The position numbers and the translations under genes are program-made. From a virus (lineage: Duplodnaviria; Heunggongvirae; Uroviricota; Caudoviricetes), in the IMG/VR virus record IMGVR_UViG_2645728048_000030: a DNA stretch of 35,944 nt, one strand, 5' to 3'. Below the pieces are notes generated by a model. The model saw only the letters and a list, made by a program, of their open reading frames with translations. It ran no database searches and was not told the DNA's origin. Below, in pieces: positions 7,922-29,572 of this stretch. How positions within the stretch are numbered: the first letter of the stretch is position 1; the number at the start of each line of letters is the position of its first letter.

Positions 7922-9048
7922 GGCGGCGTTTTCTCCGGGTGTCTGCGATAATAATCTTCAACCAGCGCATCAATACCGCCGTTACTGTCGCCGCCTTTCC
8001 TGTTTTTACGGTCGCTTTCAACCGGCACCAGAAAGCCTTCGCGTGGTGCAAGGCTGACGCGGGTTTTCAGCCCGTCCTGGTCATTCAGTATCAGGGTGAC
8101 TTTGCTGACCAGTAATTCCGTGGTTTTGATGGCATATTTCGAGGCATCAATAGTGACCAGCAGGTTCGGCATCCAGAGTTGCCCGTCCTTGCGAGTCCAT
8201 CCGTCAATTTCAGCCTCAAAGGTGATGGATTTTGCCAGTCTGCGGCGTTGCTCACGCAGGGCGCGGGCCTGTGCATCCTTCGCCGTAATTTTGCTGTCAG
8301 CAATGATGATCATCGGTCTGTAACGGGTTACATCACTGTCAGTGGCGGTCCCTTTCCGGGAGACGATACTTTTCGCATCAATATCATCACCCTCAGCACC
8401 GTTTGCGCGGGCATACCCCTTGACGGTGTATTCGCTGAACCGGTCGCGGAAGTCTTCCTCAAAATCCAGTGTCAGCAGATTTTCTCCGAGAACCAGCTCA
8501 TCAGTGGCTGTGCTGGCAGCCCGGCTGAATACCAGCTCTCCTGCGGCATTGCTGGTCATCAGTACACCGCGTGCGCGGGAGGCACGCACCAGCGCCTCAT
8601 AAACGGTTTCTGAATGGTCCAGCGTGAAGCCGGGAAAAGCTGCCGAACTTTCCTTATCGGAAAGCTCCCAGCGAACGGTAACGCCATAAGGAGCGCACAG
8701 GTCACGCGCAATCTGCTCCAGTGTGCGGTTTTTCCACTGTCCGCCACTGTAAACGGCAGCACAGTCAATCAGGTCAGCCGTTTTGTCACGTCCGGCGATA
8801 GTGATTTTCATGCTGTCAGCGGTCATCTGGCGTCGCCGCGAATCGATATAACCGGTGCAGACAATCTGCCCGTCGATTTCCAGCGTGAACGCCTTCCCCG
8901 GTGCCAGCCCGGATAAATCTGTACCCGGTGGCACATTCACCCCCAGCTCAAAATATCCGGCTACGGATTCAATGGAGCGGGTGACAGAGACTGACGTCCA
9001 GCCGGTAAAAAGCCTGCCATCCGTTCGCAGCGTGACGGTATTACTCAT
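7909..9048 (-). CDS. Baseplate hub protein (Mu gp44-like)
   Basis: 379 codons, synteny downstream of DNA circularization gene. Confidence 0.65.
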
Positions 9049-27568: not shown

Positions 27569-27958
27569 TTACAGAAGTGAGGGCTGGTACTGGCGGTATT
27601 TCAGCCGTCGCATCCGGCGAATGGCCTTGTAAACCGTATTGAAAGTGACACCATAACGGGTGGTCAGTTCGCTGACGTTGCGACCGTTAAAATCATTCCA
27701 GATACGCAAATCCCGAATCAGCGAGTCCAGAACCTGACCGCGTGGAATGTAGACCTGACCGCCGCCCAGATGCTTACAGATAGCCACAACAATCTCCAGT
27801 GAATGGGCAGGATCAACACCCAGCCGGGACAATTCCCCGCGCAGTAAATCGTTCAGCTCCGCCAGCAGTGCCGGAAAGCGTGACGTATCCTCTGCGGGAT
27901 TGTCAAGATGTGCCAGGATGGTGTCATCCTGCAAATCACCAAATAAATCTTCCGTCAT
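27569..27958 (-). CDS. mor: Middle operon regulator Mor
   Basis: 129 codons, recognised sequence; paralogue of C. Confidence 0.9.
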   Translation of the reverse strand: MTEDLFGDLQDDTILAHLDNPAEDTSRFPALLAELNDLLRGELSRLGVDPAHSLEIVVAICKHLGGGQVYIPRGQVLDSLIRDLRIWNDFNGRNVSELTTRYGVTFNTVYKAIRRMRRLKYRQYQPSLL

Positions 27959-28506
27959 TGTGCCATCCTCCGTGTCTTTCTGGCATGGGCATAAGCCGCC
28001 GTCATGGCATCATAGCCGCGCAGTTCACGCCCGGACGGACTGACTGGCAACGGAAGCCCGTGACGGGAAAAGGCTTCACGAATACAGCGGATATGCCACT
28101 GCTTGAGAGTTTCGAGAACAATCAACAGGGTGTCGCCATGACACCACGCCAGCGTGGAAACACCCTGTCCGCCATTACGTTTCGCCGTCAGGCGCTGAAC
28201 ATATTTATCCAGCGCCACATCACCGCCATCGGTAATAAAACCGTCTTCTGCCATCTGCTGCCAGACTTTGTATACCTTCTCGCGGGGCGTGACATGCCCC
28301 TTAAAGCGGCGACGTGGATGTTTATTCAGCTTCTTAAAGCCGCGTTCTTTCATGGCATCGAGCACCTGTTCCAGTTGCGTAACCGTCAGCTCGCGGCAAC
28401 TGATTTTGCCCGTTTTCTGCATCAGAAAAGCTCGGTAAGTGTCGTCGTCGAGTTGTAGCTCCCGACGGGCGACATGGATTAATTTAATCAGGGATGTGCG
28501 ATTCAT
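27955..28506 (-). CDS. gemA: GemA
   Basis: 183 codons immediately upstream of mor, with GGAGGT SD. Confidence 0.8.
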   Translation of the reverse strand: MNRTSLIKLIHVARRELQLDDDTYRAFLMQKTGKISCRELTVTQLEQVLDAMKERGFKKLNKHPRRRFKGHVTPREKVYKVWQQMAEDGFITDGGDVALDKYVQRLTAKRNGGQGVSTLAWCHGDTLLIVLETLKQWHIRCIREAFSRHGLPLPVSPSGRELRGYDAMTAAYAHARKTRRMAQ

Positions 28507-28575
28507 GATCGTACCTCCGGAAAGAGGCGGTGCTGCAACACCGCCTGAATTTACACATCAATCAGAGAGGATTTT

Positions 28576-28842
28576 ATGGAAAATAATGTACAACCTTATG
28601 ATGTTGCAGGTTATGCGATTGCATCAGCACTGGTGCGCCTTCTGGTGAAGAAGGCGATCATCACCGCAGAAGAGGGCCAGGCCATTTTCAGCTCTTCAGC
28701 AGAGATTTTAAAAGATGCGCCTGCAATAAGAACAAGCCGCCGCGAAAACATGCAACTGTCAAAGATCATGGAAGACATTATCAGTTCGTTAGACCCAGAT
28801 GCTGACGGATCTCAAAAGCCTCAAACACATGAGCGTCAGTAA
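28576..28842 (+). CDS. Candidate opposite-strand gene of unknown function
   Basis: 88 codons; ATG preceded by AGAGAGG about 5 nt upstream; sits in the gap upstream of gemA and overlaps the 3' end of the convergent ORF 28781..29083 by about 60 nt. Confidence 0.35.
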   Translation: MENNVQPYDVAGYAIASALVRLLVKKAIITAEEGQAIFSSSAEILKDAPAIRTSRRENMQLSKIMEDIISSLDPDADGSQKPQTHERQ

Positions 28843-29083
28843 CAATATCCTGGTCTGATAACCCCAGCCTGCGGCGGATGTACTCCTCGCGGGCTGTTTC
28901 ATTTTGCAGTGCCACTACTGTTTCCAGACGATTCATTTCGCGGTTGATAATGTCACGGACTTCTCTGGCGGTGAGATTATGCTTAATACCATATTCAACG
29001 ATAGCGCGAACACGTTCCAGCATCCCTTTTTCAGCCATGACGTTATCAATATTAAGGGGAGTAAATTTATCTTCATTGTTCAT
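28781..29083 (-). CDS. Hypothetical early protein
   Basis: 100 codons, start overlaps upstream stop (translational coupling). Confidence 0.6.
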   Translation of the reverse strand: MNNEDKFTPLNIDNVMAEKGMLERVRAIVEYGIKHNLTAREVRDIINREMNRLETVVALQNETAREEYIRRRLGLSDQDIVTDAHVFEAFEIRQHLGLTN

Positions 29084-29403
29084 TTTGCGGCCCTCAGAAT
29101 AAATTCAGGATAAAATTTCAGACTCATTTGCCGTAACACATCCAGTGCAGCAACGGCTGCTGATTTATCGTTGCCATCAGCAATAGCGCGGAGATTTTCA
29201 ATAATCCAGTGAGGACTCAGTGACTCAGCAATAATGCCAAACCGGTACGCCATGACCTCATCAATAGCTTTTTCATGAGACGTCTCATATACAAAATTCA
29301 CAAAGTCATGCACTTCTTTTTTCGGCAAACCACCGGCAATCAGCAGGGCGGCAAGCTCTTCTGATTTTGAAAATACACCATTATTCATATCACTCACCTT
29401 CAC
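29080..29403 (-). CDS. Hypothetical early protein
   Basis: 107 codons, tiled with neighbours. Confidence 0.6.
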   Translation of the reverse strand: MKVSDMNNGVFSKSEELAALLIAGGLPKKEVHDFVNFVYETSHEKAIDEVMAYRFGIIAESLSPHWIIENLRAIADGNDKSAAVAALDVLRQMSLKFYPEFILRAAK

Positions 29404-29572
29404 AATTCATGCACGCCGTGTCATCGCCCATATCACAGTGGTTGCATTTCTGCCCGCCACAATGAGGGCACTCTTTCAGATATTCAGGGGATTCATTACC
29501 GCAGGTCGGGCATTCCTGTTTCACCGTGGTAAATTTCCCCAGCCACGAATACGATGTTTCACTGTTTTCCAT
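29390..29572 (-). CDS. Small zinc-ribbon protein
   Basis: 60 codons with CPTCG...CPHCG...CNHC...CMNC. Confidence 0.5.
   Translation of the reverse strand: MENSETSYSWLGKFTTVKQECPTCGNESPEYLKECPHCGGQKCNHCDMGDDTACMNCEGE

Follow-up and report, generated by a model that had tools for sequence, protein, structure and literature searches.

A probable protein-coding gene antisense to the early operon of Mu-like phages: comparative evidence for gp15 and a family linked to gemA

Gene arrangement upstream of gemA

The DNA analyzed here, in the following termed the window, comprises 35,944 nucleotides and is a Mu-like phage in reverse-complemented orientation. In the orientation of the reference phages, the region around the open reading frame (ORF) under study is 99.8-99.9% identical to SfMu and to Yersinia phage vB_YpM_5 and 97.5% identical to Mu. 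The minus strand carries mor (27569-27958), the neighboring gemA (27955-28506, 183 aa) with a Shine-Dalgarno sequence complementary to CCTCC at 28514-28518, and a homologue of E15/gp14 (28781-29083, 100 aa). Between the latter two, an ORF of 88 codons plus stop is situated on the plus strand at 28576-28842, encoding a protein that begins with MENNVQPYDVAGYAIASALVRLLVKK. A Shine-Dalgarno sequence (AGAGAGG, 28564-28570, plus strand) is followed by five nucleotides (ATTTT) and the ATG. This ORF and gemA lie back to back with start codons 69 nt apart, while the other end of the ORF resides inside gp14/E15, resulting in a tail-to-tail overlap of 62 nt (28781-28842). A preliminary description of the window, made from the letters alone, had pointed out the ORF, its Shine-Dalgarno sequence and the convergent overlap, which it put at 60 nt. 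It had also stated that all other genes from ner to the G segment are found on one strand, in agreement with the RefSeq annotation of Mu, where gp15 is the sole leftward coding sequence in this part of the genome.

Three further features have to be considered. A GC-rich hairpin (28525-28546; stem AGGCGGTG/CACCGCCT, loop CTGCAA), likewise noted in the preliminary description, is located between the ribosome-binding sites of gemA and the plus-strand ORF, directly upstream of the Shine-Dalgarno sequence of the latter. Its perfect 8-bp stem is the only such stem in the window when no mismatch is allowed. On the minus strand, a 55-codon ORF (28611-28778) corresponds to Mu_54 of GenBank record AF083977.1 and starts with an ATG 2 nt past the E15 stop codon (TGATAATG). 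The same record annotates a 'semi-early promoter' (Mu 8151-8217), the equivalent of which, known from this annotation only, is found at about 28522-28587 on the minus strand of the window. It spans the hairpin, the Shine-Dalgarno sequence and the first four codons of the plus-strand ORF and features no consensus sigma70 match in a promoter scan of 27900-29500.

Further upstream in the early operon, a 107-codon ORF (29080-29403, minus strand) is inserted between the E14-like and E15-like genes at a position where Mu has no gene and where the megablast match to Mu ends. An annotated gene is present at the matching position in SfMu (gp14) and in Yersinia Mu-like phages. The adjacent homologue of E14/gp13 (29390-29572, minus strand, 60 aa) contains several CxxC pairs (CPTCG...CPHCG...CNHC...CMNC), a pattern that suggests a small zinc-binding protein.

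Identity of the ORF and conflicting records for phage Mu

The plus-strand ORF is an allele of Mu gp15. The encoded proteins share 95.5% amino acid identity over 88/88 residues and differ by four conservative substitutions (Q35K, I51M, N58K, M59L). The window protein is 100% identical to SfMu gp16 (YP_009152202.1) and to a protein of vB_YpM_5, it is matched by phrog_8747 over residues 1-88 of 88 (E=1.3e-60), and it clusters with relatives of GP15_BPMU, listed in UniProt as 'Uncharacterized protein gp15'. Mu gp15, SfMu gp16 and the members of phrog_8747 resemble the window ORF in sequence (95-100% at the amino acid level), in length and in position and orientation between gp14/E15 and gemA. We noted no substantive difference among them, and all of them are labelled 'hypothetical' or 'uncharacterized'. 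Text searches of the literature retrieved no experimental work on gp15.

The records for the reference phage itself are at variance. RefSeq NC_000929.1 lists the ORF as Mup15/gp15 (NP_050619.1, 7896-8162), the left-end record M64097 from 1991 contains an N-terminally extended version as putative ORF 'F-134', and the ORF is also annotated in the records for SfMu (as gp16) and vB_YpM_5. In the updated GenBank record AF083977.1, gp15 has been dropped; instead, the 55-codon sense ORF Mu_54 (AAF01092.2) is given at 7960-8127 together with a 3-nt 'RBS'. The two main public records of Mu therefore contradict each other regarding the coding strand between gp14 and gemA. Gene-caller predictions are available for the window allele of gp15 on 877 contigs, for the Mu allele on at least 1000 and for Mu_54 on three. 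The preliminary description picked the correct strand; nevertheless, gp15 is a catalogued hypothetical protein, so that neither a newly discovered gene nor a new kind of system is at issue.

A fixed slot next to gemA

Our comparison set consists of 30 loci bearing members of the family described below. They represent 16 different intergenic sequences, and their GemA proteins range from 100% down to 41% identity to that of the window. Additional loci were recruited by protein search rather than by genomic context and stem from viral and genomic sequences with E. coli, Klebsiella, Salmonella and Citrobacter backgrounds. In 30/30 loci the family ORF is located on the strand opposite to gemA with its ATG 67-74 nt from that of gemA. 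The ORFs comprise 79-119 codons and overlap the E15-like gene at its 3' end. In all 12 family loci checked for this feature, a Shine-Dalgarno sequence (GAGG, AAGGA or TAAGGAG) precedes the ATG at 5-9 nt. Even P0013, a member with 24% identity, resides in the same arrangement.

Two cases illustrate how far the DNA may diverge while the arrangement is retained. In a distant E. coli prophage type, with a GemA about 80% identical and other lysis genes, an 88-codon antisense ORF annotated by PGAP encodes a protein with 52% identity to the window protein over the full length and without indels. Phage D108 and the window have the 5' end of gemA and the hairpin in common, and from precisely the 3' edge of the hairpin onward their DNA can no longer be aligned. 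In the same place, and likewise on the antisense strand, D108 has an ORF of 119 codons whose ATG is preceded by AAGGA at a distance of 7 nt. This ORF is unannotated (NC_013594.1, 7853-8212, complement strand; L006:1777-2136, plus strand, in our set) and lies in a 376-bp gap between gene 14 and gemA of D108 that is 'empty' in the annotation. In the genomes compared, the arrangement shows that the gp15 family holds one fixed slot, back to back with gemA and converging on the E15/gp14-like gene.

Remote homology within the gp15 family

Mu gp15 and the D108 protein (ORF119) did not yield a significant match in a pairwise BLASTP comparison. Both are, however, matched by phrog_32893 at equivalent positions (gp15 with E=2.3e-4 over residues 5-54, ORF119 with E=5.4e-7), and MAFFT aligns them end to end. 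Comparison of two subfamily alignments (A4 versus A5) with hhalign gave a probability of 87.5% and E=3.5e-6 over 43 columns. A profile search among 1.84 billion representative proteins recovered both groups within 14 cluster representatives, all of 60-119 aa, while a word-indexed search retrieved 20 clusters from E. coli, Klebsiella, Citrobacter and Salmonella. The shared core reads [FY]D[IVL]A[GA][FY]...L[VI].K[GA][VI]I..[DE][AG]..I. Since the profiles match despite unalignable DNA, we consider the Mu-type and D108-type proteins as homologues.

Next to the Mu type, the family includes the D108 type (phrog_38610) and proteins of 79-91 aa from Klebsiella, Salmonella and Citrobacter prophages (phrog_32893 group). 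The genes of both agree with gp15 in slot, strand, spacing to gemA and presence of a Shine-Dalgarno sequence, and the proteins have an N-terminal helix-loop-helix, [FY]D[IVL]A[GA][FY]..[AG][NS]..[..]L[VI].K[GA][VI]I, and a third helix in common with gp15. They differ from gp15 in that identity amounts to only 15-25%, with unalignable DNA, and in that an LF.KLW.SRP motif is conserved in helix 3, which the Mu type lacks. The D108 form furthermore carries an acidic N-terminal extension of 27 residues that is not present in gp15. When genome contigs were scanned, the D108-type alignment led to one locus on a Klebsiella plasmid and the Mu-type alignment to none. Viral scans with P0013 and P0016 did not return any hit. 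Membership of P0016 is doubtful, as it is encoded on contigs of about 1.3 kb that offer no usable context.

The gp15 protein of the window has a mass of 9.7 kDa and a pI of 5.0; an example peptide is AIITAEEGQAIFSSSAEILK. Based on an alignment of 17 sequences, the AlphaFold2 model contains three helices (residues 8-25, 31-47 and 55-72) and is of moderate confidence (pLDDT about 80-87 in the first two helices, mean 65). A membrane protein was considered and rejected: Kyte-Doolittle values over 19-residue windows peak at 1.3-1.5, and charged residues are present in the hydrophobic helix. All in all, the searches show a family of 79-119-residue proteins, acidic, non-membrane and helical by prediction, that is restricted to Enterobacteriaceae, where it occurs in Mu-like phages and prophages. 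Pfam, NCBIfam, PADLOC and PDB sequence profiles did not match gp15. Foldseek searches with the gp15 model returned no analogue from the PDB (best E=2.5) and from BFVD only Mu's own F-134. No function can thus be derived from homology. The protein database comparison suggested in the preliminary description has established the identity of the ORF with Mu gp15 but not a function.

Deletions, truncations and replacements

In the Yersinia phages vB_YpM_3 (L005) and vB_YpM_23, a segment of 223 bp corresponding exactly to 28557-28779 of the window is missing, with an ATCA microhomology at the junction. The segment has a GC content of 44.8% as compared to 52.3% for the window. With its deletion, gp15 loses the start and codons 1-68, Mu_54 disappears entirely, and the larger part of the annotated promoter feature is gone as well. 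Both phages are viable and were obtained as phage isolates (PMC10434027). Expression of gemA in these phages presumably depends on read-through from Pe.

A nonsense allele of a D108-like member, encoding 43 aa, is present in one viral-contig lineage (L019:2492-2623). Similar truncated proteins (P0025 and P0014) are encoded on 64-76 contigs; a source is named for P0014 alone, namely Salmonella enterica. Some further Mu-like prophages of E. coli (L037-L039) are devoid of any family member: in L037 a different sense gene abuts the hairpin, and in L038 and L039 the upstream gene overlaps the gemA start. A Mu-type 5' end of gemA occurs in about 95 E. coli genomes; in 54 of these, a gp15 of the Mu type or the E. 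coli type is detectable at the DNA level, and one contains the D108 type. E. coli W harbors a copy with 97.8% identity. The natural deletion and nonsense alleles show that gp15 is dispensable for lytic growth. On the genomic evidence, gp15 is further shown to behave as an optional cassette that can be deleted, truncated or swapped between the Mu type and the D108 type.

The hairpin and the search for expression signals

The hairpin is present in all loci with an intergenic gap upstream of gemA, including the gp15-less vB_YpM_3 and L037, and is absent where the upstream gene overlaps gemA. We saw it in the window and in L005, L006, L008, L013, L016, L018, L020, L021 and L037, located 6-12 nt upstream of the gemA Shine-Dalgarno sequence, with a variable loop and with a conservation exceeding that of GemA. 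Compensatory changes have occurred in the stem (GGCGGCT...AGCCGCC in L016/17 and AGCGGTG...CACCGCT in L037), 93.7% of cells are paired, and the covariation score of 0.125 compares to 0.046 in shuffled alignments (0/500 reached it) and to much lower values in slid controls. As the hairpin is kept in the absence of gp15, it belongs to the gemA leader or marks a module junction rather than being part of gp15. A function as terminator was rejected: the hairpin lacks a T-run on either strand, was not called by the scanner and does not resemble the t9.2/Pm hairpin. An Rfam search of 28350-28950 yielded nothing but noise.

The preliminary description had not found a convincing sigma70 promoter or terminator for the plus-strand ORF, and the same holds true here. 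The promoter scan of 27900-29500 returned no sigma70-like site on either strand. In nine lineages, position weight matrices applied to the 220 nt upstream of the ORF scored at most 7 bits, which corresponds to background, and no site was positionally conserved; nor did any plus-strand site inside gemA exceed background. A promoter that is not of the sigma70 type or that depends on an activator may serve gp15. Downstream of gp15 there is no convincing terminator, the nearest terminator-like site on the plus strand being weak and about 300 nt away.

Around the hairpin (28500-28580), RNA of either strand is predicted to fold such that the Shine-Dalgarno sequence of one gene pairs with the complement of that of the other (z=-2.0 and -2.5). 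Such pairing arises automatically, because the two ribosome-binding sites lie back to back, and it would be relevant only for transcripts spanning both of them. It could occlude the gemA ribosome-binding site on long early transcripts or that of gp15 on transcripts starting inside gemA.

Which strand is coding?

One possible reading is that the sense ORF Mu_54 constitutes the real gene, a member of the early operon whose translation is coupled to that of E15 through the stop codon of the latter, and that the plus-strand ORF is its shadow. This agrees with the annotation in AF083977.1 and leaves all early genes on one strand. The preliminary description had dismissed the sense frame on account of a lacking Shine-Dalgarno sequence; indeed we found no real one, but the dismissal does not hold on that ground alone, because an ATG 2 nt after the E15 stop permits translational coupling. 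Moreover, the Mu_54 frame is also open, as a 61-aa ORF, in the diverged E. coli prophage type. Comparison of the gap across Mu-like prophages, proposed in the preliminary description, points in the other direction: with the exception of the one nonsense allele the plus frame is free of stops across lineages, while stop codons break up the Mu_54 frame in D108, L015, L016/17, L018 and L020, and the start of Mu_54 is not conserved, differing in position even between the two Mu-type lineages. Substitution periodicity cannot separate the two frames because they share third codon positions, and for the same reason the difference in mean pN/pS is a modest one (0.29 for the plus frame versus 0.37 for the Mu_54 frame). 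The BLOSUM62 score per column amounts to 3.37 versus 2.49. A further measure is a partition of sites by effect in both frames; the sequence pairs are few, related, partly saturated and not independent of each other. For pairs of Mu-type and E. coli-type sequences, changes silent in gp15 that replace residues in Mu_54 occurred at 0.71-0.74 per site versus 0.55-0.62 for doubly silent changes; the pooled D108-like pairs gave 0.69 versus 0.77. Changes that affect the Mu_54 frame alone thus accrue at the silent rate. Changes replacing residues in gp15 were about half as frequent (0.32-0.49 for the Mu-type and 0.25-0.36 for the D108-like pairs). These rates argue for purifying selection on the antisense gp15 frame and not detectably on Mu_54. 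In line with the earlier statement that codon usage of the ORF looks ordinary, the log-likelihood per codon is 0.257 for the plus frame and 0.256 +/- 0.109 for the long genes of the phage in 68-codon windows. For the Mu_54 frame, this region gave -0.091 and the Mu_54 ORF itself 0.09, values within the range for antisense frames of real genes (mean -0.247 +/- 0.153). Searches for a Mu_54 family produced no match (best E=0.13), and tblastn with Mu_54 found only near-identical DNA, with identities of 96% or more; the diverged loci that it missed were detected with gp15 at E=4e-22. Together with its prediction on a mere three contigs, this renders translation of Mu_54 in place of gp15 very improbable.

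Alternatively, neither frame may be translated and the gap may be regulatory DNA, comprising a gem or 'semi-early' promoter and the gemA 5' leader, with both ORFs being fortuitous. The promoter feature that AF083977.1 places over the hairpin and the gp15 start would fit, as would the failure to find expression signals for gp15 and the existence of viable phages lacking the entire segment. However, the deletion in vB_YpM_3 removes the supposed promoter as well and leaves a viable phage. In addition, fortuitous ORFs are difficult to reconcile with a frame of 80-119 codons with ATG and Shine-Dalgarno sequence that stays open across unalignable lineages, with homology at the protein level, with gene-like codon usage and with replacement changes being fewer than silent ones, so that we concede this reading a slim chance at best. 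Finally, both strands could code, gp15 and Mu_54 forming a true antisense overlapping pair in Mu-type phages. In favor of this, each of the two Mu-type lineages keeps the two frames open, functional antisense overlapping genes are on record for a Pseudomonas phage of the transposable kind (PMC9936078), and a dNN/dNS of about 0.67 possibly hints at constraint on the minus frame, although this ratio is confounded by the radicalness of gp15 replacements. Where gp15 is silent, dSN/dSS of about 1.2 (Mu-type) and 0.9 (D108-like) reveals no constraint on the minus frame, and Mu_54 has neither a conserved start nor homologues. An antisense frame that shares wobble positions with a real gene is often open. 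A pair of coding frames strikes us as highly unlikely.

Taken together, the ORF at 28576-28842 is very probably a genuine protein-coding gene, the window's allele of Mu gene 15, and Mu_54 looks like an antisense shadow of gp15 that shares its wobble positions. The preference for the plus-strand ORF over the same-strand frame, expressed in the preliminary description, is borne out by the comparative data and by codon usage. Comparative evidence backs the older RefSeq/UniProt gp15 call. What is new here is the comparative case for antisense coding, made against the current GenBank record for Mu, and the definition of a family linked to gemA that includes the unannotated D108 gene.

A possible role in the lysogen and comparison with known systems

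The orientation of gp15 may contribute to answering the question of when it is expressed. It faces into rightward transcription driven by Pe and, as reported, by Pgem. A constitutive gem promoter was described by Paolozzi and Ghelardini (1992), as cited in a passage of PMC3820752, and gp15 overlaps the region concerned. Because of this overlap and of the orientation toward Pe, gp15 is most plausibly expressed in a state with little rightward transcription, such as the lysogen. Its leftward promoter would most likely be weak or dependent on a factor and would be used in the absence of early transcription; the lysogen would then be the likely expression state, as for the repressor gene c. Provided that gp15 is the real gene, we put forward expression in the lysogen tentatively, as a possibility that falls somewhat short of being probable. 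As such, gp15 is a concrete candidate for a Mu function expressed in the lysogen, and there is reason to re-examine the control of the poorly understood gem operon.

The protein would most likely act via protein-protein contacts in an accessory, moron-like function, and its invariable linkage to gemA suggests a role tied to GemA or to the gem operon. One could imagine that the gp15 family proteins are prophage-expressed partners or antagonists of the gem operon: with Pe inactive, a leftward transcript starting in the 5' region of gemA would encode them, its synthesis together with pairing between ribosome-binding sites and their complements at the hairpin would bring about cross-regulation with gemA-mor, and the small acidic helical protein would modulate GemA or a host target in the lysogen. 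As a whole, we regard this scheme as speculative and rather unlikely. If it applies, the current curated GenBank record of Mu, the paradigm phage, has its annotated gene at this position on the wrong strand.

An experimentally characterized counterpart exists in the Pseudomonas transposable phage Fc02, the genes olg1/sie1 and gene 10 of which are transcribed in the lysogen and confer superinfection exclusion (PMC9936078). These, too, are small genes of a Mu-like phage that run antisense to its early lytic operon. They differ from gp15 in residing next to the repressor gene and ner instead of gemA and in having no sequence relationship with it. Expression and function have been demonstrated by experiment in Fc02 and are predictions for gp15.

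Phage morons are accessory genes of the type found in lambdoid phages that come with their own promoter and terminator and are expressed from the prophage. The preliminary description had proposed that the plus-strand ORF might be such a moron, expressed in the lysogen, or else a regulator of gemA-mor that works by convergent transcription; the latter is a candidate role here. With regard to signals the moron proposal is not supported, since gp15 lacks a detectable promoter or terminator of its own; gp15 also differs from morons in overlapping a neighboring gene and in being tied to the one slot at gemA rather than occurring at varied sites. The idea of an optional element, on the other hand, stands. 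Like a moron, gp15 is a small optional cassette: of genomes that are collinear in other respects, some carry it, some lack it and some have a swapped version. It is also somewhat richer in AT than its surroundings, and its orientation would permit expression while the operon is silent.
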